Shown here: positions 17,611 to 48,251 of the stretch, piece after piece
How the letters are laid out: every line of letters starts with the position of its first letter
How positions within the stretch are numbered: position 1 is the first letter of the stretch
DNA from: Malacoraja senta
Taxonomy: Eukaryota
Assembly: GCA_038087875.1 (NCBI GenBank)
Contig: CM075992.1
Span: 6,264,001 to 6,328,000 of the forward strand
Reading direction: 5' to 3'
Length of the DNA: 64,000 nucleotides
Program-made: the position numbers and the translations under genes
The notes under the pieces: model-generated
Told to the model about the DNA's origin: nothing
The model's database searches: none
The model's input: only the letters and a program-made list of their open reading frames with translations

Positions 17611-17628
17611 GATCTTGCTGTCGGTAAA

Positions 17629-17706
17629 GGCCACAATCAACATTCATTGCTGTCGGTGGGTTGTAAGTTATGGAAAACTCACTGACCAATGAGTGCAACT
17701 GTGGCC
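17629..17706 (+). ncRNA. mir181: pre-miRNA, miR-181b-type hairpin (syntenic position of mammalian MIR181D)
   Basis: 17639-17661 AACATTCATTGCTGTCGGTGGGT is the miR-181b mature sequence. The 3p arm CTCACTGACCAATGAGTGCAA is at 17678-17698, closed by GGCCACA/TGTGGCC. Confidence 0.95.
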
Positions 17707-21505: not shown

Positions 21506-22272
21506 GACACAAAGTGCTCTAGTAACTCAACGGGTCAGGCAGCATCTCTTGAGAAAAAGGATAGGTGATGTTTAGGATAAAGACCCGACTTCAGAGAGAC
21601 ATCACCCATCATTTTTCTCCAGAGATGCTGCCTGGCCTGCTGTGTTACAGTTATAGAGTGATACAATGTATATATATATAACAATGTATATATATATATA
21701 ACAATGTACATATATATATAACAATGTTACAATGTAACATATAAAATTATAAAAGGACTGGACAAGCTAGATGCAGGAAAAATGTTCCCAATGTTGGGCG
21801 AGTCCAGAACCAGGGGTCACAGTCTTAGAATAAAGGGGAGGCCATTTAAGACTGAGGTGAGAAAAAACGTTTTCACCCAGAGAGTTGTGAATTTATAGAA
21901 TTCCCTGCCACAGAGGACAGTGGAGGCCAAGTCACTAGATGGATTTAAGAGAGAGTTAGATAGAGCTCTAGGGGCTAGTGGAGTCAAGGGATATGGGGAG
22001 AAGGCAGGCACGGGTTATTGATAGGGGACGATCAGCCATGATCACAATGAATGGCGGTGCTGGCTCGAAGGGCCAAATGGCCTCCTCCTGCACCTATTTT
22101 CTATGTTTCTAATGTGGAAACAGGCCCTTCGGCCCAACATGCCCACCGGCCAACATGTCCCAGCTACACTAGCCCCACCTGCCTGCGTTTGGTCCATATC
22201 CTATCCATGTGTTTGCTCTAGCACTTTGTGCCTATCTTCGGTATAAACTAGCATCTGCAGTTCCTTTCCACA
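21506..22272. mobile_element. nested composite: Penelope-end palindrome containing CR1 3' fragments and an 18-20 bp AT minisatellite
   Basis: CCAATAGTTTTCAGTA at 21490-21505 and 22273-22288; three ACAATGTATATATATATA-like units at about 21663-21727; CR1 3' end at about 21740-22110. Confidence 0.7.
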
Positions 22273-23161: not shown

Positions 23162-24315
23162 AGGAATAAAGTCCTAGCTTGCCCAGCCTCTCCCTACAAC
23201 TCAGACCCTCGATTCCAGATAACAACCTTGTGAATCTTCTCTGCATTCTCACTAGGTTAATGACATCTTTCTTATAGCAGGGTGAGCACAACTGAACACA
23301 ATATTCCCAAGTGCAGCCTCAGTTACATCTTAGTGTCATAGAATCATACGGCTCTGAAACAGGCCCTTCGGCCCAACTCCTCCATGCCCACTCAAGATGC
23401 CTCATCTAAGCTCGTCCCATTATCTGCTTTTGCCCCATATCCCTTTAAATCTTTCCTATCCTTGTCTTGTACACTTGTTACATCAATTCATGTATTTAGT
23501 GTGAGTGGTTCACACCATGCCCACAATAATAACTTCACAGATCCACAGTTGGCGATTTATTAAAAATATGATTAAAAATTTTTTAAGTGGAAACATGACA
23601 GGACATGGGGAGAACACAGGTTTAAGGTGAAGGGGAAAGATTGAAAAGGAATCTGAGGGATTATTTTTTCACACAAAGTGTGGTGGTGTATGGAACAAGC
23701 TGCCAGAGGAGGTAGTTGAGGCTGGGACTATCCCAACGTTCAAGAAACAGTTAGACAGGTACATGGATAGGACAGGTTTAGAGGGATATGGGCCAAAAGC
23801 GGGAAGGTGGGACTAGTGTAGATGGGACATGTTGGCCGTAGGAGCAGAATTAGGCCATTCGGCCCATTGAGTCTACTCCACCATTCAATCATGGCTGATC
23901 TATCTTTCCCTCTCAACCCCATTCTCCTGACTTCTGCTCATAACCCTTGACACCCCTACTAATCAAGAACCTATCAATCTTCACCTTAAAAAATATCCAT
24001 TGACTTGGCCTCCGCAGTCGTCTGTGGCAATGAACTCCACAGATTCACCCCCCTCTGACTAAAGAAGCGGGCAAGATGGGCCGAAGGGCCTGTGTACACT
24101 CTGTATGACTGGGGCTCTATGTCACAGTCTCTATATTTTCTGTGATCTTCACATCTAATGAGGCCATAAATAGCTTTGAGGCTCACTCCCCGACAACACA
24201 CCACAGACTGATAACAATCTTCAACCAATCTTATCATTCAGTCGGTAAACAATGCCGGAGTAGCCCTTTAAAGGTGATTTCCCCAGTACCCAGCACCTAC
24301 TAACAGCCAGGCACC

Positions 24316-25161
24316 ATGTTCAAGGTCTGGACAGACTACCTAGAGTTGAGTTCGCTGGTGCAGAATATGATTGAAGCTCGGCACTCACCGGCAGAATCGA
24401 GAATGGAGACGGTATGGAGAAGACTGGACACTGGGATGGCCGAAGTGCAAAGCTGGAGGACAGCTGGTGACTCGAGACAACCTGTGTGGAAGAACAGCGT
24501 TACCGAGATACAACACGCAGCTGAAGCTATGAGGAGCCAGGGTTTGATGAAACTGGGGACTGGCCAATTTTTGACAGCAGACACCGATGCAGTAGGAAGA
24601 ATGTATCGCAAAGGCATGAAGGAGCAACGCTTGTTCAATGGGTTGGGGGGGTCACATTCACAGCACATCCCATGGATTCACAATCCTCCATCTCCTCACC
24701 GAAGTGCAGAACGACAAGCTGGTGTATGGGATTGGGAATCCAGTGTCCTGGCACCAAAACATAGGAGAGAGGTAGAAAGGCATAACTTACTAGAAGACCT
24801 CTTTCCATCGACAAGAGGCTCTGGAGGTAAGAAGGCAACCCGAGAGCTATTAGTCGTGCATCTTGGGGAGAATGGCCTGCTCCTCAGGGAAGACATGCCA
24901 GACTATGATTTCACGGCCAGTAAGATCGGCCAACAGTCCAGTGTATGTACATTCTGTAAACGAAACGGAGAGTCGAGAAAGACCTACACTTCACATGTCC
25001 TCAAAGACGCAAGCGGCAAGGTTGTTTGTCCAATTCTACGCGGATACACCTGTCCACTGTGCAATGCCACTGGGGACAAGGCACACACTAAACGCTTCTG
25101 TCACCTTCAAGGTAACTATAGATCTACCTACAGGAAAACACCCCGAAGCATCGCCATCTGA
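24316..25161 (+). CDS. nanos3: Nanos family CCHC zinc-finger translational repressor, single exon, 281 aa
   Basis: Kozak-like GGCACCATG; N-terminal NOT1-interacting motif FKVWTDYLEL; C-terminal double CCHC finger CTFCKRNGE..H..CPILRGYTCPLC..AHTKRFC. The paralogue is assigned from finger similarity and from its position between miR-181 and BRME1/CC2D1A. Confidence 0.93.
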   Translation: MFKVWTDYLELSSLVQNMIEARHSPAESRMETVWRRLDTGMAEVQSWRTAGDSRQPVWKNSVTEIQHAAEAMRSQGLMKLGTGQFLTADTDAVGRMYRKGMKEQRLFNGLGGSHSQHIPWIHNPPSPHRSAERQAGVWDWESSVLAPKHRREVERHNLLEDLFPSTRGSGGKKATRELLVVHLGENGLLLREDMPDYDFTASKIGQQSSVCTFCKRNGESRKTYTSHVLKDASGKVVCPILRGYTCPLCNATGDKAHTKRFCHLQGNYRSTYRKTPRSIAI

Positions 25162-25877
25162 GACTTTTTAACCACGCTGCAATGTGGCATTTTGGGTCGA
25201 GACCCTTCCTCAGAGAAACGTCACCCATCCCTTTTTCTCCAGAGATGCTGCCTGACCCACTGAGTTGTCGAGTCATCGAGTGATACAGTATGGAAACAGG
25301 CCCTTCGGCCCAACTTGCCCACACCGACGTTTTCGTTACCACCGGAGATATCGTTAATGTAGCAACATTATGTAGCAAACGTTTGATACTTTGATATTTT
25401 GCTTCTATACTCTGTGGAGTTTCTTGTAATATTTAAGAACAGTCCACAAGTCTAGCAAATGTACCTCTGTCACACCGACGTGTCAGTCATTGTCACTTTA
25501 GTTTGAAAATTAGTGTTTTAATTGCTAATTAAAATTGGCAGTGTATATTGTCGGTATTTTATTTCAACGTTGTACTGGCTGATGCCACACTGACCTATCA
25601 GTCAAGTATAAACGCAAAAAGCTGGAGTAACTCAGCGGGACAGGCAGTGAGAAGGAATAGGAAACGTCACCCATTCCTTCTCTCCAGAGATGCTGCCTGT
25701 CCCGCTGAGTTACTCCAGCATTTTGTGTCTTATCTTTGGTTTAAACCAGCACCTGCAGTTCCTTATTACACATATCAGTCATTGGTTTGAAAATTTGTAA
25801 GTTTAATAGTTCATTAAAATTAGCAATTTCTATTGTAATCACTTTATTTCAAAGTTGTACTCATTTATATTGTTTTA

Positions 25878-27301: not shown

Positions 27302-29540
27302 ACCCCCCCACTTTCTTCACCTCTCCTGTTCCCCACCCACCTGCTTCCATCTTTCACCCATCAACCAGCCGTTGGCCTCAATCTCATCCCTGATACTGCC
27401 ACCTACTGGCAATGCGTCCTCTTCCCTCTCAGCCCTAATGTAGGCAGGCACTCGACCCAAAACGTGAACTTAATGCTCATTGACCTGCTGAGTTCTTCCA
27501 ACATTCTCCCTCGCTGCTCTACATACCGGCATCTGCAGTCTGTGTTATCCACGCACAACTTTCCTAACAAGTAGTTATTGTCTTACTGGGGTGGGAGAAT
27601 GCAACCTACACCTGGTCCGCCCTGTTTCGACGAATGCAATCAACCGGCGTGCACAATCAAATAAGATCAAATAGAACAAGTGTCCTACAAATAAGAACAC
27701 TTAATTCCCTCCAATAACTTTTGACTTTGATGTATACAGTGTCCTTGTCTATGGTTTTTGTCTGTTCTTTTGCACTATGTCTTGTGGTGAGATTTGTGAT
27801 TTGTGATGTGGTATGGATGCACTTTATTATTATGATCTGTGTTGTTATTAGTGTTAATGTGACTAAAGCAGTGTACCATCATGTACCGAACCCAAATACC
27901 ACCAACCCTGGTCGTGTGGCAAATAAAGATTCTATCTATCTATCTTCATCTATCTACCTACAACGTTAGGCTGTGCACGCCATACGCAAGGAGATTGTCT
28001 TACTAACGTGACTCACATTCCTTTCCTTCACACACCTCCCTACCATCGAGGGGATCTATCGCAGTCGCTGCCTCAAAAAGGCTGGCAGCATCATCAAGGA
28101 CCCACCCCATCCTGGCCACACACTAATCTCCCCGCTACCTTCAGGTAGAAGGCACAGGAGCCTGAAGACTGCAACGACCAGGTTCAGGAATAGCTACTTC
28201 CCCACAGCCATCAGGCTATTAACTTGGCTCTCAAACTCTGAACATTAATAGCCCATTATCTGTTATTTGCACTTTATCAGTTTATTTATTCATGTGTGTA
28301 TATATTTATATAATGGTATATGGACACACTGATCTGTTCTGTAGTCAATACCTACTATGTTCTGTTGTGCTGAAGCAAAGCAAGAATTTCATTGTCCTAT
28401 CAGGAACACATGACAATAAACTCTCTTGAATCTTGAATCTTGAATCTGACCCCAGGTAGCTTGGAGCCGAATGAAGTAAATACAGGGTGTAAACAGTCAT
28501 ACAGGTGTAAACAGGCCCTTCGGCCCACATGCCTATGCCGATCAACGTGCCCCATCTATACTAGCCCCACCTGCCTGCGTTTGGCCCATATCCCTTTAAA
28601 CTTATCCTATCCATATACCTGTCTAAATGTTTCTTAATATTGTGATAGTACCTTTTGTTTTGTAATGTTTAGCTAAAATCATTAATTGCAATCTTTTGGT
28701 TGAGAAACAGGGCAATTTTGTAAGGTTTTTACTCTGTTAGACTAAGGAACCCCATTGCATCCTTAAAGGTTCATTGGAAACAAAATGAATATGCGTTTTG
28801 TTTACAAGATGTGAACATCCCTGTGAAAGACCACACATTGTGACATTTGGTTGTAATCTTCCAGCATGTGTTGATTGCATGCAAGAGTGAGAGCAAGAAC
28901 TTCCAGGAGCCACTTTATTACTGCTGTGTCAGTGTGTTTTAAACCACACCGGACATTTATAGACACAAAGTGCTGGAGTAACTCAGCAGGTTAGACAGCA
29001 TAAGGACATGTGACCCTCCCGTTTCTCAGAGATGCTGCCTGACCGCTGAGTTACTCCAGCACTTTATAAGTAGGCAAAATGCTGGAGAAACTCAGCGGGT
29101 GAGGCAGCATCGATGGAGGGAAGGAATAGGCGACGTTTCGGGTCGAGACCCTTCTTCAGACTATAAGGTCATATGTGATAGTAGAATTAGGCCATTCGGC
29201 CCATCTATTCTACTCCAGCATTCAATCTTGGCTGATCTATCTCTCCCTCCTAACCCCATTCTCCTGCCTTCTCCCCATAACCTCTGACACCTGTACTAAT
29301 CAAAAATCTATCTATCTCTGCCTTCAAAATATCCACTGACTTGGGCTCCACAGCCTTCTGTGGCAAAGAATTCCAGATTCACCACCCTTTGACTGAAGAA
29401 ATTTCTCATCTTCCTCCTAAAATAATCGTCCATTAATTCTAAGGCTCTGACCTCTAGTCCTAGACTCTCCCACTAGTGGAAACATCCTCTCCGCATCCAT
29501 TTGCGTCTATCTTCGGTATAAACCAGCATCTGCAATACAC

Positions 29541-30262
29541 CTCCAGTGTGAGAGTGAGGTTAAACGCATATTTGAACAGCATCTGATATTTCGGTTGGGC
29601 AGCTTACAACCCAGTGGTATGAATTTGATTTCTCTAACTTCAAGTAACCTCTGCATTCCCTCTCCATCCCTCCCCCACCCAAGTCGTACCAGCCTCTCCT
29701 TCCTACCTAGCAGACAGCTAACAATGGCCTGTTTCCTTTATCATCGTTACTTTTTTGCATATCTTTCATTCAATTGTTCTATATCTCTCTGCATCACCGC
29801 CAACACCTCTCGTTTCCCTTTCTCTTGACTCTAGTCTGAAGAAGGGTCTTGACCCGACACATCACCCATTCCTTCTCTCCAGAAATGGAATATAAATGAT
29901 TTACCCCTTTAAGAATAAGGAGTAAGCCATTTAGAACGGAGACGAGGGAACACTTTTTCTCACAGAGTTGCGAGTCTGTGGAATTCTCTGCCTCAGAGAG
30001 CAGTGGAGGTCGGTTCTCTGGATACTTTCAAGAGAGGGTTAGATAGGGCTCTTAAAGATAGCGGAGTCAGGGGATATGAGGAGAAGGCAGGAACGGGGTA
30101 CTGATTGGGATGATCAGCCATGATCACATTGAATGACGGTGCTGGCTCGAAGGGCCGAATGGCCTACTCCTGCACCTATTGTCTATTGAGATGCTGCCTG
30201 TCCTGCTGTTACTCCAGCATTTTGTGTCTATCTTCAGATTAAACCAGCATCTGCAGTTCCTT
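29541..30262 (+). mobile_element. Penelope-like 3' relic interrupted by a CR1 3' fragment (about 29885-30187)
   Basis: Encodes LQCESEVKRIFEQHLIFRLGSLQPSGMN (endonuclease end), then UTR, then CTGAAGAAGGGTCTTGACCC. The tail resumes at about 30188. Confidence 0.8.
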
Positions 30263-32264
30263 TCTCCCCATTTCCCCACTGACTTTTTTTGTAATCCGCA
30301 GTTCTTTGTTTCTCCATGTTTAACATCTGCTTGAGAAACACACATCTTGAGCTGTGTGCCGCTGACACGTTCAGCACTGGTTATAAATTGAAACATTCCT
30401 CAGAGATTGCTGTGCTCCCAACCTAATAAAATGCACCTTTAGAGGTTACTTAATCAATTTTATACATTATTTTAATAATTAATATTGAATGAGCTTGACT
30501 TTTCACGCAAACTTACCCATCCTAGTTTTGTTAGCCAGACAGTGAGGTGTCAAATGTAAATGGTAAAGTTATATTCTGCCGCTGTGAGAAATAATAATTG
30601 GTGCTACTGAGTCCTGCGGTTTAAATTTCTAATTACCCCACTTCATGTTTGTGTTTTTGGATCTTCTCCAAACGATCCCTGCTCATTTCTTTTTCCATTG
30701 CCACAGCAGTCATTCTTGTGCGCTGTTAACTTCTTTTTTTTGTTCAGTGTCTCATTTGCAAGGCTTTTCAAATTCCAGCCAAGAGCACCCAAGTGTAGCT
30801 GAAACCTCTCCATATTCGGTTCTTGTGTGGCCGATTCCTAGAACAGCTTCAGAAACTCTTCAGAAACTACAATTGACAGATTCATTTTCTGGATACGGTT
30901 CTGAGAAACTTGGTGGTTAGGGGTGGTATGTGTGGTACCGTACATATTATAAGTGTGTAATATTTTTTATCTTTTAAAACTTCTGCTTATTAGTCACAAA
31001 AATAATGAAGGTAGGAAAATTATCCTCTGCAGACTTGCTCGATGACAAAGGCTTCCAACTTGAAACGTCGTCAGTCCATATCCTCCAGATAGGTTGCTTA
31101 GTTTATTTTAGAATTACAGCATAGAAACAGACCCTTCAGCCCACTGAGTCCATATTGACCATCAATCATACTGATTCTATGTTCCCCTACTTTCACGCCC
31201 TGGTATAATTGTAAATTGTCCCTAGTGCGTGTAGGAGAGTGTAAGTGTATCGGGATCGCTGGACAGCGCAGACTCGGTGTGCTGAAGGGCATGCTTCCAT
31301 GCTGTACCTCTAAAACTAAAACTAATTCAGACCTGTGGTGAGTAAAGGGAGATGAAGCTTCACAACGTATTTTGTATATATTACAAAAGCAGTTTAGATC
31401 ACCCTGCTATCGGAGGGATATCATTGAGCTGGAAAGAGTGCAGAACGTTATGAGGATGTTGGCAAGAATCGTGGGCGTGAGCTTTAGGGAGAGGTTGGGC
31501 AAGCTAGGACTTTATTCCCCAAAGTGCAGGAGGCTGGGGGGTGATATGCAAGAGGTGTATAAAATCATGAGGGGAATAGATAGGGTAGCTGCACAGTTCT
31601 TTTTTCAGGGTGGAGGAATCAAGAACTAGAGGGCATAGGTTTAAAGTGAGAGGGGAACGTTTTAATATGAACCTGAGAGGCAACCTTTTCACACAGAAGG
31701 TACATGCAGTTGAGGTAGGTACAGTAACAATTAAAAGTCATTTGAACAGGTGCATGGATAGGTATGGTTTAGAGGGATGTAGGAATTGCTTAGATGGGGC
31801 ATCTTGGTTGAGTTGGGCCGAAGGGCCTGTTTCCATGATGTATGACATGTACAAATGATTATATGTATACTATCCTTCATTGAGAACAGATCAGTTGATT
31901 GCCGACCTTATTAAGATACAAACTTTTAATTCCATCCACAGTTTATGAAAATTTCAATATAATAAGAACTACATCAAAATGGGGCAGTAGCATTGCTCCC
32001 TACCTAAAGATCATTCACCGAAAGAACATTTTAACTGCTGCAAAACAAGACAAATTATGCCCCAGGATAACTTTCCATAGTTGATATGTCGAGTGACGAG
32101 CAGAAACACAAAGCAAAGGACTTTCACCCACACGTTCTCATGAATCAGCACAAGGCCATGCACATTTTTCAATTAATACTACAGTCAAACAATATGAAAG
32201 AGAAACCGTGCAAGACATTGGTGGTAAATTTCTGCTACCCACAGTGGTGATGAAATATTTCTGG

Positions 32265-32940
32265 CTTATTAATACTCTCCTGTGTTGAGCCAGTCTGTCT
32301 GACTCACATCCTTCAATTTGGTTCTAATCACAATTGTTGAAATTCCTGCTTCTGAACCTTTACTTATGTAGATGATGAACAAGAGAGGGCCCAGCACCAA
32401 TTCTATTAGATCACTGGTTCCCACCTTGTGAAACGAAGCTACCTTAATATGTAGCAAGCAACTGCAAATGCTGGTTCAAACCGAAGATAGACACAAGAAG
32501 CTGGAGTAACTCAGCGGGTCAGACAGTATCACAGGAGAAAAGGAATAGGTGACGTTTCGGGTTGAGACCTTTCTTCAGACTGACAGTGAGGGGAGAGGGA
32601 AACGAGAGATAAAGACTCTCAGTCTGAAGAAGGGTCTCGACCCGAAACGTCACCTATTCCTTTTCTCCAGAGATGCTGCCTCACCCGCTGAGTTACTCCA
32701 GCTTCTTGTGTCTATCTTCGGTTTGAACCAGCATTTGCAGTTGCTTGCTACATATTAAGGTAGCTTCGTTTCACAAGGTGGGAACCAGTGATCTAATAGA
32801 ATTGGTGCTGGGCCCTCTCTTGTTCATCATCTACATAAGTAAAGGTTCAGAAGCAGGAATTTCAACAATTGTGATTAGAACCAAATTGAAGGATGTGAGT
32901 CAGACAGAGGACTGGCTCAACACAGGAGAGTATTAATAAG
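32265..32940. repeat. long near-perfect inverted repeat (fold-back)
   Basis: 32265-32519 is the reverse complement of 32683-32940 except for one 3-bp indel. Imperfect pairing continues inward to a spacer of about 35 nt. Confidence 0.95.
32624..32654 (+). ncRNA. minimal type-I hammerhead ribozyme motif (representative copy)
   Basis: CTGAAGA-A-GGGTCTCGACCC-GAAAC-GTC-ACC: catalytic core, stem II hairpin and NUH site. Activity not shown. Confidence 0.7.
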
Positions 32941-33670
32941 TCTGAAGAATAAGTGTGCAACTGAATTTCAAAATAAGGCAAGTATGCGATGTATATTATG
33001 GCTATATGAATAAGGAGCCCATGCAATCCTTGGAACATAATGAGGTGCAGGAAGAGGGATCTGGGATTATAAATACACAAATAAATGCTAACAGGCAATG
33101 CAGACTAATGAAACATTGTAGCTTATTTCTGGAGAAGAAACTGGAATGTAAACAACTAACGTTGGATCTTTACAGAACAATGCTTTATGAAACTTGGAAT
33201 GCTGTTTATATAAAATAGATTTACAAGTTATGGTGGTGCGACAAAGATTAATTAAGATGGTATCGTATTTCAGATAATCAGGAAAGATTGATCATACTCA
33301 GGCTCTTTTCAATAGAAACAGGAGAACTGAAGGGTGATTTTATAATGAGACTTTTGTGAAAGGGTAAATATAGATGTTTTCTCTCGTGCAAGAGACCATA
33401 ACTATGGTCTATAAACGTAAAATAGTCATTGGAACAACGTCAAAGGAGGATTTCAAGGAAACTTACTTACCAGGGGGTGTCTGCAATTTGGAACTTGGGG
33501 GCACAATTAGTATTGAAGTGGTCCAGATGCATTTAAAGGGAAGCTTGATAAACACTTGGGAGAAAGGAACAGAAAGATACCTCGAGATTTAAAGAAGCGA
33601 GACAGAGAGCTTTTAGTGCAGCATAAACTACAAGTGGACATGTTGAGGCAACTGGCCTTGTTTCTATGCT
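32760..33670 (+). mobile_element. old, highly degenerate CR1 relic
   Basis: VLGPLLFIIYI RT motif followed by decayed downstream CR1 motifs in colinear order. Confidence 0.6.
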
Positions 33671-33718: not shown

Positions 33719-33860
33719 TCACAGATCTTTTCTCTTCAGTAAATACGGTACATTTGCCGCTCCTTTTGGGAAGTGTGGGTGTCTGCCGGTAGTTCTTGCT
33801 TTCCTGGTTTTGTGCCGTTTCATGCTTTCCAGCTCCCGGTGAGTGATCATAATGATACGA
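33719..33860 (-). CDS. brme1: BRME1 last coding exon
   Basis: Acceptor ttttttcgtag; encodes (N)RIIMITHRELESMKRHKTRK..KRKDL*, matching BRME1 NRLIMxTHRDLE. TGA at 33721-33719. Confidence 0.9.
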
Positions 33861-36800
33861 CTACGAAAAAATGATCAAGAAACAGTTACAACATTGCACA
33901 TATATGTAGTTTATAAGATAATATGGTCAATGATTTAACTTTCCAGCTAAATCATCTGGCCAGCCCTTCCTTTACCTATCTCCAGTACATCCCCCCCCCC
34001 CCCCCGCTTTCAGTCTGAGTGGGGATCCTGTCCGAAGCATCACCCATCCTTTTCTCCAGAGATGCCGCCTAACCCTTTGACTTACTCCAGGACTTTGTGT
34101 CTATCTTTGTTATAAACTGACATCTGCAGTTCTTTCCTACACATTTAACTTCCCAGGCTGGCTTCGTGTGCAATGCTCACGGCTTCAAACAGAGACTGTG
34201 GATTTCAACACCCACCTTCGGCACGGACATAGTGGGCCGAAGGGCCTGCTCCTGTGCTATATTGTTCAATGTTCTATATGACTGCAACTAATAAGGCAAA
34301 TATTGTTATAAAAGACACAAAGTTCCGGAGTAACTCAGCATGTCAGGCAGCATCTCTGGAGAACATGGTTGGATGACATTTGGGATCAGGATCCTTGTTT
34401 GTGTTGTATTTTGTAAACCAGCATCTGCATTTCCTTGTGTCTGGCAGTGTAATGGTTTAGTTTAGTTTAGTTTAGAGATATAGCGTGGGAACAGGTCCTT
34501 CGGCCCACCGAGACCATGCCGACCAGCGATCACCTATAGACTAGTTCTGTCCTACACACTAGGGACAATTTACAAAAGCCAACTAAACCTGCACGTCTTT
34601 GGAATGTGGGAGGAAACCGGAGCACCCGGAGAAAACCCACACGGTCACAGATAGAACGTGCAAAATCTGCGCAGACAGCACCCATGGTCAGGTTCCAATC
34701 TGGGTCTCTGACGCTGTAAGGCAGCAACTCCACCGCTATTCTGTTTGTCATCAGTGTCACCTAATCTTTTTCAAAGAATGTATGTTTGGTAAAATACCTA
34801 AAGTTCTGCTGAACAAGAACTGCAAGTTCTTTTGGCAGTCCAATCCTTGCTCAACAAAAACCACCAAGAACATGTTAGCAGGTCACTTGCATTACCGCCC
34901 TTGTGCTTTATTTATTTACATTATGGCCACTGCGCTTTACTGTTAGTTAACCGGTCATCAAGATTTCCTAATCAGATGGTAATCCTGCATTCTGCGGTGC
35001 ATGTGTGAAGGAGACATTAGCTTTAATTCTAAGGAATAATAAACTACTAGGCTTTTTATGGAAGAACATTAAGCACTTCACCTCATCGTGTTCTACTGAA
35101 AGTGGAAATTCTGCTGCAGAATAATCAAGGATGAAACATCCAGACAGGCTGTACGTTATGAAGGAATTCATGTTTCATTTGGTCTTGATGATCTGAAGTC
35201 AAATGCAATACCCCTTCAGAAACGCAAACATGCCTTGGCCTGAAGTAAAGACACAAAGTGCTGGAGTAACTCAGCGGGTCAGGCTGTAACTCTGGAGAAC
35301 GTAGACAGGCGACGTTTCGAGTCAGGACCCTTCTTTGGACATCTGGAGTCCCGATTCAAAACGTCACCTATCCATGTTCTCCAGGGATGCTGCCTGACCC
35401 GCTGAATTACTCCAGCACTTTGTGTTTTGTGTTGCAGCATCTGTTTCTTGGTTTATGTGACTGTCTAGGCCAGGTTAAACAACTCTCTGCGATTTCCTGC
35501 AGTCTTGTATGGAGCTGTTCTCAAACCATGCTGTGTTGCCGGTAGTTACTGCAAACAGCTTTGCTTTAATTCCAGATTTTATTGAGTGTTATCACTTGAG
35601 TATTATCCAGAGTGTTATTCCAGACTTGAGTGTTATCTCCTCTGCTGCAGTGGTGGGAATGTTCTATCAGTTTCCCTTTCACTGCTATGGGTTTTCCAAC
35701 GCTGCAGAAACACATATAAAAGTCCAGATGCAACTTGCAACCTCGTGCCTGAATGACTGCCATGCCGGCGATTACCTCTATTGAACATAATTAGAGTGTA
35801 CGGGGTGTTGACAAGTAAAGAGTCAAAGAAATGGAAGGTGAAACTGATAATTTGTTCTTTTAATAGGGGAATTGCGAATGGAAAAAATTTCCTCAGACTC
35901 TTGTTCTCGTTAATTCCTCTTCTTCAAATAAAAATTTATTTTACGAGCTAATTACCTCCTACTTTTTTTACTTTCCTCCCCGGTATAATCTCTTCCTGGC
36001 ATTACTCATACTGTAAGATTACTGTAACAAAATTGGCCACATCTAGTGCTGCTTTTGGCTGGCTACTTGAATGCATACAAGAGCAAGCATTGAGTAAGGA
36101 GGTTGGATTCCTCACCCATGGAATTGCTTGGCCCGTGCATAGTTTCCCCCTACACTGAGCCTGTGTGTGAACTGGCAGCCCAAATACTCCAGATAACATA
36201 CATATTTCCTTAAAAGTAATCGCACAGCATTCCCTTAGGTCTTCAGTGATTTATATTTGTGTGTAAAATATGGGTCTGAGCACAAACATACCTCCTTTGG
36301 TTCATTCTATATACCCACCACTTCTTGTGAAAAGCTGCCCCTCAGATTCCCATTAAATCTTTCCCCCTCACCTAAAACCTATGTCCTCTGATTTTGATTT
36401 CTCCACTCTAGACTGTGCATCTACCCCATCTATTCCCCTCATGATCTCATACACCTTTATAACTGATCATAGATTTATACCTAAGATAGACACAAAAAGC
36501 TGGAGTAACTCAGCGGGACAGGCAACATCTCTGGAGAGGAATGGGTGACGTTTCGAGAACCTTCTTCATTCCTTCTCTCCAGAGATGCTGCCTGTCCCGC
36601 TGAGTTACTCCAGCTTTTTGCGTCTATCTTCGGTTTTAACCAGCATCTGCAGTTCCTTCCTACACAGAATTATATCTGCCGTGCATGGAGGAGACAGCAG
36701 CAACTGTTCACATAGGTAGGTCTGCTATCACATGATTGATGCGTTCCCAAGGAACATTGTATTATAGAAAATCGTGTTAGAAAGATAATTTTGTCAATGA

Positions 36801-37900
36801 GGGAAAAGGGATCAGGAGTTAGAAAGTCTCAATAACAAAGTTATTTTTCCTGCAGGATTAAAAAAAACATAAAGGTAATTTCAATAGCAGTAAGTTTTCT
36901 TTGGGTTGCTGCAAGCTAAAAATACCAAAGGCTGTGCATTGTTCAACAGAATATCATTGCATAAGTGTCAATAGAAGTGATTGCCTGTTAATTTCAATGG
37001 CCACCCGCGGTTAAAGTAGCAACTGTGTTCTTAAGAGACTGATTACTGCAGGGAATCATTTTCCCCCCTGAACTGTTGAAATCTGATCGTTTTTTTTCCT
37101 GATTGTCAATTTCCAAAGTAACTTTTAAGTGGTTCGCTATTTCTCGATCAAAATTGTGTTGTAATCAATTTTGGACTGCTTGATACAAACAGTGTTCCTG
37201 GATTCATAACCCGTGTTACAATAGAACTACCTCCCAGAGTCATACAGCATGGAAACAAACCCTCGGCCCAACTCGCCCACGCCAACTGTCCTTCTACACT
37301 AATCCCACCTGGCTGCATTTGCCTCATCTCTCTCAAAACCTTTCCTATCCATGTACCTGTCTAAATGTCTTTTCAATGCAGTTATAGTATCTGCCCCAAC
37401 TATGCTCCTCCGGCAATTCATTCTATATACCCACCAACCTCTATGTGAAAAAGTTGCCCCTCAGATTCCCATTCATTCTTTCCCCTCTCACCTTAAACCC
37501 ATATCCTCTGATTCTTGATTCCCCTACTCTGGGTAAAAGACTGCGTATCTACCTTATCTATTGCCCTCATGATCTTGTACCATTATAAAATCACTCCTCA
37601 TCCTCCTACGCTCCATGGAATACAGTCCTAGCATGCCCAACCTCTTCCTAGAGCTCAAGCCCTCGAGTCCTGACAACGTCCTCGTAAATCTTCTCAGCAC
37701 TCTTTCCAGCTTAACAACATTTTTCCTATAGCAATATAAAGTGTTATATATCAGAACACGATTCACTGCTGAAAGAACTGTGATCATATTTATACTGGTT
37801 GTTTCATCTGCACCATTTACACAGAATTCTAAGCAGTTGTAAAAAATGTTGAACTACGTAACACTGTTGGAATGATTTCAAGTGCATAAATATTACTCAC

Positions 37901-37990
37901 TTGATTTTGGAAAGTTCATTAATGAGCCCACAGACGACATGTGTGGCATCTTCCTCTTCTGCAAAAGAAAGGGACTGCCAATCTGCCTCA
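37901..37990 (-). CDS. brme1: BRME1 penultimate exon (90 nt)
   Basis: Encodes EADWQSLSFAEEEDATHVVCGLINELSKI, matching the conserved BRME1 C-terminal EDAT..GLI.ELS helix. Acceptor gcttacag, donor AA|GTGAGT. Confidence 0.9.
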
Positions 37991-38735
37991 CTGTAAGCAC
38001 ATCAAGAGCAGACACATTTAGATTGCGGCAACACTCACTAAGGTCACTAATACTGAATCTGACAAGAACTATTCGGGTCAAATTTCAACTGGTGACCTCT
38101 TGCCTTATTTCCTGGTTGGCAGACAAAAATTGGGAGAACGAGAAATGGCAGAACTACTGGGGGATAGTAGAGCCACATCCTCACAGCGCCAGAGACCTGT
38201 GTCGATCCTGACCTCGGGTGCTGTCTGTATGTGGAGTTTGCACGTTCTCCCAAGGTAGAAATGTCAAATACTACAGGAAATAGCTTTAAGATGAGAAAGG
38301 AAAATTTGAAAGGAGACGTGCGAGAGTTTTTTTTCCCCCACATAGAGAGTGGTAGATGCCTGGAACATGCTACCAGGTGGCAGTGGTTGGGGCACAATGG
38401 TGTAAGCAGACACGAGAGTGACAATTACGTGGCCTTTAGTCAGACAGATGAACATTCAGGGAATGGAGGGATATAGATAATTTGTAACAGTTGGTATTGG
38501 TTTAATTTGGCATAATGGTCGGGACACACAACATGGGCCGAAGGGCCGGTTCCTAACTGCACTGCCCTATATTCTACAATCTAAACTAACCTTGTAGGAA
38601 TTAGATCGAGTCTTCCCTGTAAACGGAACTATAAAATTTGTATGAAATTCAAATCAGACACAAGGGAACGAGATAGCAATGTACTAACAAGCTCTGCTTT
38701 TTAATTAAAAATCATGGATAGTATTTTACTAATAC

Positions 38736-38865
38736 CTTAAATGGAGGTCTTCCAACTCTGATGAGAAATTAGCATTATCCTGAGGGGCAATGAGCAGTGA
38801 ATCATCCATCATATCCTTGTTATCCGTCACTGCTTTAACGAGCTCCAATCCATAACCTTTATCAT
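38736..38865 (-). CDS. brme1: BRME1 exon (130 nt, phase 1 to 2)
   Basis: Acceptor ctgcttcatag, open frame DDKGYGLELVKAV..ELEDLHL, donor AG|GTATTA. Confidence 0.7.
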
Positions 38866-39142
38866 CTATGAAGCAGATATAAGAGTTAATTCTTTTAATT
38901 AGTAATTACAATAGCTTTCTGTACATTTACAATTCTAGAGATTGCCTGACTGAAAGTTTATATTCCATATATCCAGGGCCAAGGCAGCCACTCTGTTAAC
39001 ACTTCACTAAATTATGTAACATGAGCAAATAATCAAAATATGTTTTAGTCATCTCTCTGATTAAGTTCCAACATATCCAGATACAATGAAGTTTCTGCAT
39101 TAGATGTTTAAACATTTACACCTATAAAGTCTTATGTACAGG

Positions 39143-39300
39143 GTAGACAAAAATGCTGGAGAAAGTCAGCAGGTGCGGCAGCATCTATGGAGCGAAGGAA
39201 ATATCTATCCTTCGCTCAATAGATGCTGCCGCACCCACTGAGTTTCTCCAGCATTTTTGTCTACCTTCGATTTTCCAGCATCTGCAGTTCCTTCTTGAAC
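39143..39300. mobile_element. palindromic Penelope-end element with 16-bp flanking duplication
   Basis: AAGTCTTATGTACAGG at 39127-39142 and 39301-39316. Confidence 0.8.
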
Positions 39301-39438
39301 AAGTCTTATGTACAGGTAGGTTTAGGTTTTTGGATACGTACAATCAAAGACTTGAAAGAAAATTGTGAAACTTGTAGCATACAAAACAATGAATAAACAT
39401 AGACTTTAATCCATACATAATCATATCACAAGCATTAC

Positions 39439-39475
39439 CTGGATGAACCATGCCTGGAATGGATTTGGAAAGAGT
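39439..39475 (-). CDS. brme1: BRME1 small exon (37 nt, TLSKSIPGMVHP)
   Basis: Acceptor ttttgtttcag, donor CAG|GTAATG. Phase 0 to 1 bridges the neighbouring exons. Confidence 0.65.
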
Positions 39476-40531
39476 CTGAAACAAAATTTAAAACGTTAGT
39501 GAAATATCAAAGAACCGGTACAAAAAGGAGTTGCATTTATTGACTGAGTAAGAGATACAGAAATTTGAAAACGCATGCCTCCAGATTCACGAACAGTCCC
39601 TTCCCTAACAGGCAGATTCACAAACAGTCCAATCCCAAATAGGCAACGTGACAGTACTCTCCACAGCTAAAGTGCAGTCCTGACCTCCTATCTACCTCTG
39701 TGGAGACCTTTGAGCTATCTTAATCGGACTTTAGTGCAATATCTTTGCACTAATGGCTGTATTCTTTATCTGCGCACTGAGGGCGGCTTGATTGTAGTCA
39801 TACCCAGTCTTATCTTTGACTGCTTAGCATGCAAACAAAAGCTTTTCACCGTACCTCGGTACACATGACAATAATAAACTAAACTCTGATGCAGCAAAAC
39901 AGAGTCAGATTCAGCACTGAGCATCAGCCACCCATTTATACTAATTCTACTTTTATACTCCCATTCCCTTCAAACTCCGCCAGATTCTACCACTCTCCCA
40001 CACACCAGGAAGGATTCAGTGATTAATTAAGCCATCAACCATCTCTGGGTAGTGGAGGGAACGAGCACCTGCTGGAAAGCCACACTTATCAAGATCGTTA
40101 AAACTCCACACCTAAGTCACTGAAGCTGGTGACGTAACTGCTCCGCCCTACACCGCATCAAAAGGGGATTTACACAGAGAGGCAATTCATGCATTAAATA
40201 GTGATGAAGGAATTAGTCCTATTGCAATGTAAATGCACTCAGAACTATTTGCTTTGGTTATTTGCAAATTAATAAACCATTTCATTTATTTTGGTTTAGT
40301 TTTGTTTCGAGAAGCACCTTGTCTTTCGGAGCACCTTGAGTTCCTAAAAGAACACAAAGTGCTGGATTAACTCAGCAGGTCAGGCAGAATCCCTGAAGAA
40401 CACGGATAGGTGATGTTTCAGGTCAAGACCCTTCTTCAGACCTTGGGTTCCTCATCTGAAGAAGGCTCCTGACCCCAAATCTTCATCTGTTCATTCCTTC
40501 CTCAGATCAAACAGGTAGAGTTGCTGCCTAA

Positions 40532-41262
40532 TGCCCCTGTCCCACTTAGGAAACCTGAACGGAAACCTCTGGAGACCTTGCGCCCCACCCAAGGTTTCCG
40601 TGAGGTTCCCGGAGGTTTTGGTCACTCTCCCTAATGGTGGAAAGTGGTTTCTGCGTAGTCGAGGCTTCTTCTATGTTCCTGCGATTATTTAAAAAAAACA
40701 AAAAACGGCCTCGACTAAAAATAGGTTGCCGTTTGGTTGAAGCTAGTGGAGTGGGGTTGCTATTTACTTACAGGCAGTCGAAGCCAATCTCCTTCGCTGA
40801 CCTGCCATTTTGATTGGCTCATTGGTGTTTTCAGCAAAGATCCTGTAGGATCTTTGGTTTTCAGGAACTAGAAGATCTGCCGGAAGGTAAAATGCCCGCT
40901 AACTTTATTAAACTTCTTAAAACTGTCTCCACTCCTTCTCCCCCCCCCCCCCCTTCTCTCTCTCCTTCTCTCCCTCCCTCTCAAAAGGACTTACCGTGCT
41001 CTGTGGCAGCCGTTTACTTTCCTCTTCATCGCGCAGACTGCGCTCCTCCGCTGTCCCTGACCCCCACCTTCGCGATGTGTGTGTGTGTGTGTGCGGTCGG
41101 TAGCAAAGATCCTGTAGGATCTTTGGTCAGTAGATGCAGTTCACGCTTCGGTCGAGGCTTTCCAGGCAAGTGACCAAAACCTCTGGCAACTCATGGAAAC
41201 CTTGGGTGGGGCGCAAGGTCACCAGAGGTTTCCGTTCAGGTTTCCTAAGTGGGACAGGGGCA
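40532..41262. mobile_element. PIF/Harbinger-like MITE with long TIRs, inserted in a SINE head
   Basis: TGCCCCTGTCCCACTTAGGAAACCTGAACGGAAACCTCTGG..CTTGCGCCCCACCCAAGGTTTCC and its reverse complement at the right end; TAA/TTA flanks. Confidence 0.85.
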
Positions 41263-41894
41263 TTACAGCACCAGAGACCTGGGCTCGATCCTGATTATGG
41301 GTGCTGTCTGCACGGCGTTTGTATGTTCTTCCTGTGACCTGCGTGGGTTTTCTCCAGATGCTCCAGTTTTCTCCCACACTCCAAAGACGTACAGGTTTGT
41401 AGATTAATTGGCTTTTGTAAAATTGTCCCTAGTGTGTGGAGGATAGTGTTAGTGTACGGGTGATCACTGGTTGGTGCGGACTTGGTGGACGAAGGGCCTA
41501 TTTCCATGCCTTATCTCTAAACTAAACAAAATAATGAAGAACAAAATATTCATGAACATATTTACAATATCTTAGATTAGGAACCAGATGAATTCTTGCC
41601 TTTAAGTCTGGGTTTTATCACAAGCAATGTACATAGTTAAAAAAAATCACACTAATGAGTTAATTTGTCTTTGGTTGTTAATGCTAAATATATGATTATG
41701 TATGCCTCCATATATTAAGCTTCACTGAACTCATTGATTTGAAGATATGGAGATGGATCCAATCAATAGCTGTATTCTTGCATGTGGTTTGTGTTAGAAA
41801 AATGTCATACTTTTTCACAGAGGACTTTAAGGAATTATGGCTGAAGGTGTATAATATAGTAAAATTATTAATAATCGTTAATAAAATCATTTAC

Positions 41895-44393
41895 CTCACA
41901 ATTGGTACTGTGGTGTGCATTTTGCTCACTTTCATCCTTTTGTTTCACAGTCCAAGATGCTGTCACATGTTGACAATTAACCCTCTCCTGAGCCATAGTG
42001 GAGGATCTCTCATGTGCCATCGACAAACTGTAGCCCTTACATTCTTCAACATTACTTATCCTATCATTAGTTTCTGTGTTGGCTTTCTTATGAACAGAAG
42101 CAGCAACTGCTGATTCAACACTTGAAGTTGGTAACGTCATTGAAAGGTCTCCAACATGCCTTGCTGTGAAATCCTCAGCTTGATGTTGCGAGGAAGCCAC
42201 TGAAATGGTTGTTAGATTTTGACCACTTATAGGTAACGTATTCTTGTCTCCAGTTGCAAGGTCGCAACTCACTTGCAAATCCATCTCTTCCGCAGGAAAA
42301 AACGTCCGATTAAACATATCAGGCTTATCTACATCTTCCTCCTTAGGATGGTCATTTGAAGTCTGGACTCTGTGTTCTTCTGCATTATCATTCTCTTCAT
42401 TATCATCTCTGTTCACACCCCCACATTCCATACTTCCTCCATCTTGAATCTGTTTCTTTTCTTCTTGATGACAACTATCAGCATCATCGTCCATTCCATC
42501 GCCAGATAACTGTGACGCTGCTGTAACGTCCTCGTTCTTTGTTTCACTGCTGACACCCTGCTGAATTTCCTTTCTGTTTAAATCTACCGTACCTGAATCT
42601 TCGATCATGTGGCGTTCAATCGGGAAGCCCTGGTTAGCCTGCGATGACAATCTATTACAAATGACTTCTTTAGTGGTGGCCAATGACATGTTGTTGATTA
42701 TCTGTTCTTCTGCATCCTCTGTTCCTTTTCCATTACATTTAACACTAAATTGTATCTGATGACTACTTACTTCAATATCGGGAATAACTTCTTCATTGTT
42801 GACAGGATGGTCAGGTGTTTGCGAAAGGTTGATATTTGTATTTTGCAGTGTTTTCTCAGAGATCTGTGATCCTCTTTCCAAATCTACATCCTGCACAGAA
42901 CCATTGGTGTTTTCTGTACACACCTTAAAAGCCATAGGGCTTTTGGACACACCGGCTTCCGAGCAAATGAGTGCTGAGTTGGCCAACTGAGTTCCAAAAA
43001 GGGTTGACTCCTTAGATCCAATACATTGTTCTCCTAGTCTGTCTTGTCCAAAAGAATCACACTTCTGGTCTCCAGTGTCAGTTGGTATAGCACCACTGTC
43101 ATGGTTTTCACTTAATGCTTCCTGGATTAGCAGTTTTGTTTCTTCATCAGCAGTATGGCAATTTATGGAATTACACCCCTCTATATTATCGCCACAACCA
43201 TGAATGGTTTCATAAGAATTCTGGGTGATCTCCTGATGTTCATGGCTTCTGGCTATGTCCGTTTCTGCTTGATCACCGGGATGTATCTCAGACACACTCT
43301 CCGTCCTTTTAACTTCTGGAAAGCATTGGCTCAGTTGCTCTTGAAGTTTAACATCTTGATCGCCTGAGTCTCTGTGGAGAATTAGACGGTCGATCATAGA
43401 GGGGACTGGAACATTCATGTCAGACCAGTTGCTGTTAGAGCCATTTTGAGATTCAAAGTTCATCAAGAGACAATTTCTCACTGAGTTGGGCGATTCTGGC
43501 ATTTTCGCATTTACATTCCGACATTTATCCATTACATCAGGCTGAGAATTAATTTGACACTTGTCCATTACGTTAGGCTGAGAATTAATGCTGTAGCTCT
43601 CCAGCTGATTTTCAGCATTAGTATCAAGTGAAAGGCCAACAGGCTGTGAACATTTTGTCTCCTTTAGGTCACCAGTCAGATTCATTTGCACAAGCAGTTC
43701 TTGTTCTTGTTTGTTAACCTCTGAGACTTCACATACTACATGACGAGTCTCCTCTATACAAGTAAAGTCCTTTAATTCTTCAGGGGTAAGCACACGGCTT
43801 TCAACATTTTTGTCAGCATTCTTACTGATTATGAGAGCCCATTTTGATTGTTTACTTTGGGATGCTACTTCCTCATGGGTGACTTGCACTTTATCAATTG
43901 TTTCCTGGTTAAAATGGTGCAGCAGTTCATTGTTAGGCTTTCCCTCAGAGATAGAGGTGCTTAAGTTCTGTGTTTTGCACTCTGTTTGAGTTAGTGGCTC
44001 AAATGCTGTGCTATGAGCTACTGGGATTGGAGTGCTGCAAAGCACATCCATTTCATATTGATGGCTGCCCAGTTTGCTACTGTTATTTCTTCCTTCAGTA
44101 ACATCAGAATTTATGGGATTGGAGTAGCACATTAACCCTTCAATGGAATGATCTACAAAGTCTGTTCCCACTTGCATTGTTGAATGTGATACACAGTTGT
44201 CATCTGTAAAAATCTCCTGCTGCTTGTTCCCTGGCACTTTAGAATCTAGATGACTTGCGTTAGAGGCAAACTGTTCTGAAGGCTGTTGAGATGCCTGCTC
44301 TTGGTGTTTGGTAGTAGCCAGACTGAATCCTGAACCCTCGTGGACCACACCATGAGATCTGTCATCACCTTCCGTTTTACTGATGTTTGAGCT
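41895..44393 (-). CDS. brme1: BRME1 large internal exon (2499 nt, 833 codons, acidic and low complexity)
   Basis: Lies within ORF 41868-44441. Acceptor ttcttcattatttaag, donor GAG|GTAAAT, phase 0 to 0. No repeats noted; S/E/D/N/Q-rich. Confidence 0.88.
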
Positions 44394-45957
44394 CTTAAAT
44401 AATGAAGAAAAATTAAATAAGGACATATCTAATGCATTCATTTACATTCTATAGCTGGAATACAAGTCAATCTTTGTTTTATGTTTAGGAAGTAACTGCA
44501 GATGCTGGTTTACACCGAAGATAGACACAAAAGCTGGAGTAGCTTTGTGGGTCAGACAGTATCACTGGAGAAAAGGAATACGTGACATTTGGGGTCAGGA
44601 CCCTTCTTCGGACTTAAAAAAGGGTCTTGACCCGAAACGTCACCTATTTATTTTCTCCAGAGATGCTGCCTGACCCGCCGAGTTTAGTTTAGTGATACAG
44701 TGCGGAAACGGGCCCTTTGGCCCACCGGGTCCGCGCTGACCAGCGATCCCCGCACATTAACACTATCTTACACAACCAGGGACAATTTATATATATACAA
44801 AGCCAATTAACCTATAAACATGTACGGCTTTAGAGTGTGGGAGAATACCGATGATACTCCGTACAGGCAGCACCCGTAGTCAGGATCCAACCCGGGTGTC
44901 CTGCGCTGCAAGCACCGTAAGGCAGCAACTCTACCGCTGTGCCACCGTGCCGCCCTCCAGCATTTTGTGCCTATGTTTGTTTCATGTTATTGTGCTACAT
45001 ATGATTTTGCTTTGTGGTTTATTTTGTTATTTTACACAAAGGGATACAATAAATGAACCTAAAATTTACAGAAAACCTTTTAAAAGTACAGTCTGATGAG
45101 ATCTCTTCCACTGAATATACCATCATTCTGAGTTTCAGAAAGGAAATGCATCACAGGCCAACTGGTAAACTGGTCACTGAAGCCTTTGGAAGACTGCGGA
45201 GACTCAAATCAATGGGACAGCTGGTAAGAGTACCGCATGGGGTATTGTCATGCTACAATTCGGATTCAGTTCTTCATCTGTTAACTTTTCTGATCTCAGC
45301 CAAGTCAGTGAAAGGTATGCAATGCTAATTTTAAAGATCAGGCTGAAGAAAGGAATAAAAGACAAACATCTGGAAATATTCTGTGTCGGGCTGTGGAGAA
45401 ACAGAGATAATGGTTCAGTTAATTACCTGAAAAATAGTTTTCCAATTATCACTCTGTGACACAAAGGGTGGTGGGTGTACGAAATGAGCTGCCGGAGGAG
45501 GTAGTTGAGGCAGGGACTATCACCACATTTAAGAAGCAATTTGACAGGTACATGGATAGGACAGGTTTGGAGGGATATGAGCCAAATGCAGGCATGAGAC
45601 TAGTGTAGATGGGACATGTTGGCCGGTTTGTGCAAGTTGGGCCGAAGGGCTTATTTCCACACTGTATGACTCTGTGATCCTGTTGTAGGGTGTGCATATT
45701 GGTGGAGGCAACAACATGCTGTAAGAATGTCTTCCAGTGTCATCAGTCCATTGCTATTTTATGTCTAAGGCACGTGCATTAAAATAAAGCTGTTGAAAGA
45801 AATAAAATCTTCAGAATATTTCCAATAATTGAGATCAAAGAAATACAAACTCTGGCATGACCTACTGGTCAGTTTATTGACATATATCTATGTATAAAGC
45901 AGATATGATACAACTAGTATTATAATGCCATCCCATGAAACAAGTGCAGCAAAATAC

Positions 45958-46056
45958 CTCTTTGCTTGTCTTCTGCAGAACATTCTTCAATGAATCACTG
46001 CGCGTAAGTCGATTTTTTGGCTTTGGAAAGACGGGAACATATCTTCCAGCTGAATT
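45958..46056 (-). CDS. brme1: BRME1 coding exon 4 (99 nt)
   Basis: Encodes NSAGRYVPVFPKPKNRLTR..SKE, resembling the conserved SQNSxGRFVPxF motif of BRME1 as I recall it. Canonical ag/GT boundaries. Confidence 0.85.
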
Positions 46057-48163: not shown

Positions 48164-48251
48164 CTGGGAAAGTGGAATTGATAACTGTTCTCCTTCCTGA
48201 GATCCATTCACTCTGCCTTTTTCCTCTACTGCTGATACATTCAGATCGGTT
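48164..48251 (-). CDS. brme1: BRME1 coding exon 3 (88 nt, phase 2 to 0)
   Basis: Acceptor cattactttag; encodes TDLNVSAV..IPLSQ; donor CAG|GTTTGT. Joins the next exon to give IPLSQ-NSAGRYVPVF. Confidence 0.8.

Follow-up and report, generated by a model that had tools for sequence, protein, structure and literature searches.

The locus

The window, by which we mean the whole stretch of 64,000 nucleotides analysed here (Malacoraja senta, contig CM075992.1, positions 6,264,001 to 6,328,000), carries two mir-181 hairpins (16640-16719 and 17628-17708), then nanos, then BRME1 (33719-50126) on the opposite strand, an order which we take to be like that of the human mir-181c/d-NANOS3-BRME1 block. The upstream exons of BRME1 were mapped with a protein of Leucoraja erinacea, whose identity over the searched part is 85%, and we infer that the last coding exon joins them. 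An open BRME1 stretch of 857 codons (41868-44441, minus strand) ends in a stop where the Leucoraja protein stops too, and the conserved Brme1 C-terminus lies 8 kb beyond this stop, which suggests alternative ends or a truncated annotation. Past the BRME1 stop lies a long palindrome, the focus of this study:

24304-25161, plus strand: nanos coding frame (zf-nanos, E 1.4e-24)
33719-33874, minus strand: last coding exon of BRME1, ending in the stop; the palindrome follows about 770 nt downstream on this strand (Pfam Brme1, E 1.7e-8)
32259-32946, no strand: whole palindrome, arms of about 330 nt, 96% alike, of which some 190 nt are unique flank present as an inverted duplicate
32450-32611, minus strand: left arm, an inverted pseudo-LTR (pLTR) copy that reaches about 30 nt further upstream; hammerhead C3 at 32578, A.C at 10.1/11.1
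32614-32752, plus strand: right arm, a 5'-truncated pLTR copy (32614 to about 32715) with a tail (about 32713-32752)
32622-32653, plus strand: minimal type I hammerhead motif (consensus fit to the supplement of PMC4209133; descriptor passed)
32619-32624, plus strand: initiator-like TCAGTC, hot spot of 5' ends at 32621/32622

Lying about 770 nt past the stop, the palindrome precedes the first ATTAAA (31930) and AATAAA (31516) but follows five weaker variants of the signal, so that its position in the BRME1 3'UTR is likely. Contigs of a run that is possibly RNA adjoin the palindrome; they are no evidence of expression.

A minimal hammerhead at the 5' end of an abundant repeat

In the focal copy, helix I consists of 2 bp (GT at 32622-3 with AC at 32652-3), the core runs from C3 to A9 (32624-30, CUGAAGA) and is followed by an extra A (32631), and stem II pairs GGGT (32632-5) with ACCC (32640-3), that is 4 bp closed by a CTCG loop; GAAA (32644-7) then leads to CGT, and helix III is the palindromic ACGU. 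C17 would be 32651, and the cut is predicted after this base. An earlier note, made from the letters only, had recognised here the type I hammerhead consensus, with an extra A after A9 as in some natural hammerheads. Both hold: the motif is of the minimal type I and fits the hammerheads published for Penelope-like elements (PLEs), which have one extra base before stem II. By contrast, the stem II of 5 bp with a 2-nt loop that it proposed becomes 4 bp with a 4-nt loop in RNAalifold.

The pattern CTGANGA-N(3-30)-GAAAC has 14 exact matches in the window, against a shuffle mean of 1.58 (largest shuffle 5). The full minimal-hammerhead descriptor is passed by 7 of the 90 copies of the repeat in the window and was matched in 0 of 100 dinucleotide-model controls; Rfam gave no hammerhead family match in the window at E up to 10. 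The motif is present at all nine places where near-intact copies had been announced, and at 58023. Nevertheless only six of these nine pass the full descriptor: 3647- fails by G.G at 10.1/11.1, 32578- by the A.C at the same pair, and 49128- keeps a single helix I pair; the CTGACGA variant at 58023 has lost U16.1. The pair G10.1-C11.1 is kept in three of the seven passing copies (9973+, 32624+ and 29159-), among them:

9964-10065, plus strand: intact-descriptor copy within an inverted pair, C3 at 9973, UUCG loop, 4-bp helix I
29068-29166, minus strand: intact-descriptor copy, C3 at 29159

The extra base between 9 and 10.1, like G10.1-C11.1, is the majority state in an alignment of 33 copies, in which helix I is paired in 73% of cells; copies extending upstream read CAGT or TAGT, giving a helix I of 2 bp. 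Of the flanks first described, GT/AC is that of the focal copy, but the GGGT at 3647- is foreign, belonging to the partner copy, whose antisense arm adjoins at the junction, and not to the copy's own helix I. The AGGT/ACTT at 26525 consists of a one-G deletion plus C-to-T changes. What abounds beside the germline genes is the repeat, with 90 nhmmer matches, and not dozens of intact ribozymes.

The copies 221-, 9973+, 15719+, 39206+ and 49128- look younger and form a distinct subfamily, with U at H17, G at 1.1, a shorter tail, a UUCG loop in some copies, pairs 99-100% complementary and long target duplications.

The repeat belongs to a Penelope-like element

Three places in the window carry protein remnants next to the motif:

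54353-54971, plus strand: longer 5'-truncated PLE, with the C-terminus of a GIY-YIG endonuclease (54353-54550, broken), 3'UTR, decayed hammerhead at 54866 and 3' end
29500-29887, plus strand: partial tandem, with a tail piece (29500-29536), endonuclease C-terminus (29541-29648), 3'UTR and hammerhead at 29836
57890-58255, plus strand: pLTR copy with a long upstream part (core at 58023), PLE reverse transcriptase (RT) fragment with YIDD (58120-58215) and a second core at 58219

With one chondrichthyan protein as query we collected 334 relatives, and 121 proteins, including the best 120 of these 334, were searched against the window by tblastn. The three fragments match ray and shark proteins: the endonuclease C-terminus at 54353-54550 with E 1.7e-18 and 60% identity to relative P0011, that at 29541-29648 with E 3.2e-7, and the RT fragment at 58120-58215 with E 7.5e-9. 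A hammerhead lies 316 nt and 188 nt, respectively, downstream of these two endonuclease ends, on the same strand. The 30-aa YIDD fragment at 58120 matches two chondrichthyan proteins at 67-70%, and phmmer with the RT fragment returned two true relatives plus one chance match, a yeast wall protein. Pfam, run on 69 of the 111 long frames of the window, gave no PLE domain; the endonuclease pieces surfaced only by tblastn. For the 42-aa RT fragment, word search gave no homologue, Pfam no family and Atlas no score above 0.80. Pattern scans of viral, metagenome and prokaryote collections gave no match. A weak in-frame likeness to the repeat is seen at the run-on end of shark protein P0017 (7 of 10 residues, E 0.008).

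Membership in the Penelope-like elements, at which the earlier note had hinted, is thus borne out by the linked endonuclease and RT fragments, three within the window: the repeat is the pLTR plus tail of a PLE, in skate. The anatomy of the insertions also matches PLEs, with inverted and partial-tandem pLTRs, a one-sided tail and variable target duplications, as described in the accessible sections of PMC8557442 and PMC3846280. Pfam finds GIY-YIG in relatives P0008 and P0014, and weakly RVT_1 in P0014; relative P0006, 70% identical to the RT fragment of the window, has a CX4CxxC linker. A CX2-5CxxC linker between RT and endonuclease is, in the accessible text of PMC8557442, typical of Neptune and Nematis; the endonuclease-bearing element is likely of the Neptune type, by a linker seen in this relative and not in the window.

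Copies, ends and pairing

The hammerhead forms the 5' end of a repeat of 95-135 nt, of which iterated nhmmer on the window found 90 copies at E up to 0.01, 84 of them below 1e-4. The 3' ends are bimodal: 18 of the 90 matches stop at model positions 122-127 and 34 at 155-158, about 35 nt further, this second cluster coinciding with the end of the nhmmer model. A CCAGCA motif stands before each of the two 3' ends (e.g. 32695-32740, plus strand) and a single upstream ATGCTG could pair with either; the two alternative CCAGCA/ATGCTG hairpins formed in this way may set two starts of reverse transcription. The first of them, downstream of the hammerhead, showed no covariation. Just past the hammerhead (32655-32672, plus strand), a pyrimidine tract followed by CAG and ATG resembles a strong splice acceptor, and by their sequence the abundant copies could offer cryptic acceptors.

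Copies are arranged in 23 head-to-head pairs (one plus-strand copy being counted twice) against 1 tail-to-tail pair, and eight pairs of neighbours lie on the same strand. The tail is found on one arm in 17 of the 23 head-to-head pairs, on neither in 5 and on both in 1 (p = 0.042). Direct repeats of at least 9 nt (9-17 nt) flank 7 of the 23 pairs and 3 of 30 solo copies, compared with 1.5% of random windows; a target duplication of this length is absent from the other 16 pairs and 27 solo copies.

The density of copies per kb is 1.03 inside BRME1, 2.22 in the nanos-BRME1 interval and 0.94-1.44 elsewhere. The repeat is matched by 130,310 to 220,527 contigs per DNA-like run in two organisms, and runs of several further organisms match small shares of the stretch. 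As the repeat is genome-wide and occurs in several organisms, its presence beside nanos and BRME1 calls for no special explanation.

The sharp 5' boundary beside the core

The hexamer TCAGTC at 32619-32624 presumably resembles the initiator (Inr) consensus. Just there most core-keeping copies begin: 32 of the 37 copies that keep the core start just upstream of it, lacking the upstream pLTR beyond a few bases. Only 4 of 73 copies have their start close to the cut site, roughly the 5% that a uniform rate of truncation would give, by a null rate that is crude. Among the 37 anchors, 4398+ and 21296- are perhaps spurious, and the class that ends near the core may include divergent upstream subfamilies. 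This start just upstream of the core, and not at the cut site, suggests that uncleaved RNA was copied back to its start. Three DNA runs show the same loose 5' ends at 32621 and 32622, followed outwards by random AT-rich flanks (agreement 0.31-0.34); among the rows listed (24 of 1659) no loose end fell at 32652, and 12 of the 15 joints listed have one side at 32619-32622. In run X1, among the rows listed, 518 loose ends at 32614 and 739 at 32619, which in part continue into the upstream pLTR, compare with 597 and 560 at 32621 and 32622. An extra G derived from a cap is only hinted at: 5 of 7 copies have a G before GTCTG, one of these being a junction overlap, but only 1 of 8 non-run-on copies has a G before AGTCTG; a run of 3, with AG kept, occurs in 9 of the 37 copies.

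PLEs have internal promoters within the pLTR, according to the accessible part of PMC2377424. We lean slightly to the view, drawn from these ends, that the RNA starts at TCAGTC and that most insertions are run-off copies of uncleaved RNA from two internal starts of reverse transcription. Somewhat less probable, but to be taken seriously, is that in the same element the hot spot is instead a splice acceptor (CAG|U), a preference of the endonuclease or of the junction, or a stop of the reverse transcriptase. A pyrimidine tract and CAG indeed precede the core, and in D. virilis an intron end abuts helix I, so that TCAG|T is a possible acceptor; but the flanks before 32621/32622 are random, with no exon-1 consensus, and many copies retain the AG that splicing would remove. 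A junction preference would agree with the ability of the Anolis endonuclease to cut its own pLTR (PMC11167929, accessible text), and self-priming on an antisense template has been published as a model for head-to-head palindromes (PMC3846280, accessible text). A reverse transcriptase blocked by structure, on the other hand, would be expected to halt 3' of the fold and not past it.

The start of the RNA at TCAGTC could be carried further, to a reading that we hold only tentatively and find unlikely as a whole. The copies would be a fossil map of the element RNA, which would start at TCAGTC with the hammerhead in its first 33 bases; the cut would remove a capped leader of 31 nt, and this protein-assisted decapping would switch the RNA between message and template. 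The insertions would be cDNAs of the strong-stop kind, running from two internal starts to the cap and joined in pairs. If true, such a switch gives PLE hammerheads a testable role.

Test for constraint on the ribozyme core

Of the 33 near-complete copies aligned among the 90, five rows truncated or misaligned in the core were dropped, leaving 28. Outside CpG, the core differs from the majority in 18 of 279 cells, against 69 of 1016 downstream when the columns that define subfamilies are left out (p = 1.0) and 124 of 1259 when they are kept (p = 0.086). The catalytic G12, which lies in a CpG, is mutated in 8 of the 28 rows, other CpG positions in 6-9. Covariation in helices I-III of the 33 copies is not above that of shuffles: for five measures, 26 to 93 of 500 shuffles reach the observed values, which does not uphold the claim that stem II varies while staying paired. 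Thus neither the excess conservation of the core nor the covariation that had been set as a test was found among the genomic copies of the window.

Variants common to at least four rows nevertheless keep out of the core: they touch none of its 10 non-CpG columns, compared with 23 of 73 outside it (one-sided p = 0.031); inside the hammerhead, such shared variants lie in loop II, at H17 (C to U) and at 1.1 (A to G, the wobble being kept). These patterns fit a weak constraint on the core in the parent lineages, then neutral decay after insertion; judged by their sequences, the genomic copies show no selection for cleavage.

Could the copies cleave?

The palindrome folds as one long hairpin (32440-32760, -263 kcal/mol), in which the pairing probability of stem II is 0.000 on either strand; in a lone arm it is 0.07. 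The two motifs of one palindrome cannot be partners in a dimer, as they lie on opposite strands, and are predicted to mask each other. For two same-strand 40-mers of the focal copy, the double hammerhead reaches -6.1 kcal/mol versus -21.1 kcal/mol for the best alternative dimer, in nearest-neighbour energies that omit tertiary contacts and help by proteins. In the same-strand pair 26047+/26525+ helix III has a pairing probability of 0.000, and solo arms are no more stably folded than shuffled sequences (z 0.3 to 1.1). By these models the focal copy would be locked in a hairpin of about 330 bp and unable to cut.

That such motifs need dimers, as the earlier note proposed, agrees with the literature (PMC4209133; review PMC6765202, accessible part). 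The published PLE motifs cleave weakly in vitro as dimers, the ribozyme of an Anolis PLE cleaves only with its protein (PMC11167929, accessible text), and the function of PLE hammerheads is described as unclear in the accessible sections of PMC8557442.

Inverted duplication at the focal palindrome

Compared arm to arm, the inner part of the palindrome has 8 mismatches, followed by 224 identical nt, a gap of 3 nt and 31 more identical nt. The depth of the duplicated piece is twice that of its flanks in two samples (54.9 vs 26.4 and 5.23 vs 2.6), one of which may be the source of the assembly. A misassembly of the long palindrome was considered and is ruled out by depth in the two samples. In a second organism, the contig on the left side diverges at 32262, and that on the right has the tail and the flank once. 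These contigs and the depth suggest that the insertion is likely shared and that the inverted duplication of flank plus tail came later; the duplication of the flank is likely recent, lineage-specific and posterior to the insertion, and likely arose by template switching between the arms. It would also account for the focal pair being the only one with two tails. At the outer junction (about 32940-32950) we observe an 11-nt match to the start of the hammerhead.

The resulting hairpin measures about 330 bp, probably belongs to the BRME1 3'UTR and is by its predicted fold a candidate substrate for editing or dicing.

Origin of the copies

With high confidence we propose that the repeat is the 3' pLTR plus tail of an endonuclease-bearing, likely Neptune-type PLE, surviving in short pieces that are truncated at the 5' end and often lie head-to-head, and that the hammerhead in these pieces decays neutrally once they have inserted. 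Reverse transcription begun internally on uncleaved RNA is their likely source, and it is likely in the parent element alone that the hammerhead works, either as a weak dimer or assisted by the protein of the element. The steps would be as follows. The motif sits 188-316 nt behind the endonuclease C-terminus on its strand, and the two clusters of 3' ends, about 35 nt apart, would by analogy with the Anolis element (PMC11167929, accessible text) be two internal RT start sites. Core-keeping copies mostly begin a few bases upstream of the core, with no pile-up at the cut site, and the initiator-like TCAGTC would be the 5' end of the RNA, so that the copies would be short run-off cDNAs. Two cDNAs primed at both nicks of a staggered cut would join head-to-head, which would yield palindromes with one tail and target duplications of 9-17 nt. 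In host transcripts the partner arm is then predicted to mask the motif, and no cleavage would follow.

Could the unit rather be a non-autonomous RNA of the retrozyme kind, which cleaves itself, circularises and replicates? Retrozymes of animals descend from PLE pLTRs, and the only chondrichthyan sampled had them (bioRxiv 10.64898/2026.07.22.740005, accessible text); the eight same-strand neighbour pairs might recall them. But the window shows no regular tandem array whose successive units keep intact hammerheads, the units do not start at the cut site and head-to-head pairs dominate, so that we regard this as very unlikely. Even less credit goes to dispersed copies working as ribozymes used by the host, which would cut germline transcripts (nanos, BRME1, the mir-181 host) as dimers. 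Three copies do keep the full core with G10.1-C11.1, some copies probably fall within the 3'UTRs of nanos and BRME1, same-strand neighbours such as 26047+ and 26525+ exist, and the weak in vitro cleavage by dimeric PLE motifs is published. Against this, the core decays neutrally and covariation is not significant, the double hammerhead is far from the best dimer and the helix III of 26047/26525 does not form in the model, the focal intact copy is antisense to BRME1 and the sense copy is mismatched, and neither of the two pairs ahead of the nanos AATAAA keeps an intact core.

Finally, palindromes that are short and very abundant, and without an Rfam hammerhead match, could evoke MITEs (DNA transposons) or SINEs that resemble a hammerhead by chance. 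The arms are however unequal and variably truncated, solo copies are common, the duplications measure anything from 9 to 17 nt, and the window yielded no tRNA gene; the attached PLE protein fragments largely refute this reading, the least credible of all. A MITE with fixed terminal inverted repeats and a fixed short target duplication was rejected, given the unequal arms, solo copies and variable duplications. The dispersed copies are thus best read as inert end pieces of a PLE, whose hammerhead likely served the parent element. A role of these copies in germline genes appears unsupported: the repeat is genome-wide, its core decays neutrally and covariation is not significant.

Relation to known systems

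The motif, its family and the dimer idea are already published; the skate lineage was not found reported in the literature searched. The class is a known one, PLEs with minimal hammerheads of the dimer type, thousands per vertebrate genome. The minimal PLE hammerheads of PMC4209133 share with ours CUGANGA, the extra base before stem II, G10.1-C11.1, GAAA, the palindromic CGU and H17, as well as mostly single dispersed copies, opposite-strand pairs and a predicted dimer. With 2 bp in helix I and 4 bp in stem II, the skate motif lies at the short end of their range; helix I ranges from 2 to 5 bp in them, and 2-bp cases are published (PMC4209133). The alignment of that paper has no cartilaginous fish, and shark, Callorhinchus and Leucoraja are unmentioned in those of its supplements searched.

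The EN+ PLEs Neptune and Nematis (Craig et al. 2021, PMC8557442) have, in the accessible sections, the same C-terminal GIY-YIG, heavy 5' truncation, partial tandems, an inverted 5' copy, a 30-40 nt tail on one end and a hammerhead in the pLTR. The skate element differs by the lack of a full ORF in the window, by most insertions being 95-135 nt with a sharp 5' boundary, and by a clade assigned via relatives. PAc/Poseidon of Anolis, in the accessible text of Frangieh et al. 2024 (PMC11167929), shares two 3' ends that define a tail downstream of the hammerhead, an uncleaved RNA template and no ends at the cut site; its ORF begins in stem II and its ribozyme is assisted by protein, whereas no ORF start was found for the skate repeat, which is known from sequence alone. 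Animal non-LTR retrozymes (bioRxiv 10.64898/2026.07.22.740005, accessible text) are likewise non-coding, PLE-derived and provided with a type I hammerhead, but form tandem arrays with intact ribozymes in consecutive units, while the skate repeat is dispersed, inverted and decayed.

The value of the present analysis lies in the correct annotation of a very abundant skate repeat that resembles a MITE. Its sharp 5' boundary bears on the questions of the PLE template and of hammerhead function; such a boundary beside the ribozyme was not found in print in the literature searched, most subscription journals and repeat databases being beyond reach. The long hairpins that likely lie in 3'UTRs of germline genes would count for their double-stranded RNA and not for their ribozymes.

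Other features of the window

Two head-to-head palindromes of PLE ends (25184-25266 and 25602-25768) lie between the nanos stop (25161) and an AATAAA at 25878, the nearer one 23 nt past the stop; neither has an intact core, and an ATTAAA (25528) stands between them. A weak RING-finger match of Pfam at 47963-48274, minus strand (E 0.002, below cut-off), in a frame that overlaps a BRME1 exon, is probably due to chance. A LINE-type RT fragment of 282 codons (61751-62599, plus strand; Pfam RVT_1 and ALKBH8_N) is unrelated to the PLE. Lastly, the window has at least two further families of dispersed repeats of 300-390 nt, at 1851-2236, 4662-5036, 5417-5802 and 21730-22111, and at 889-1213, 3940-4256, 16292-16587, 34444-34750 and 59022-59319.
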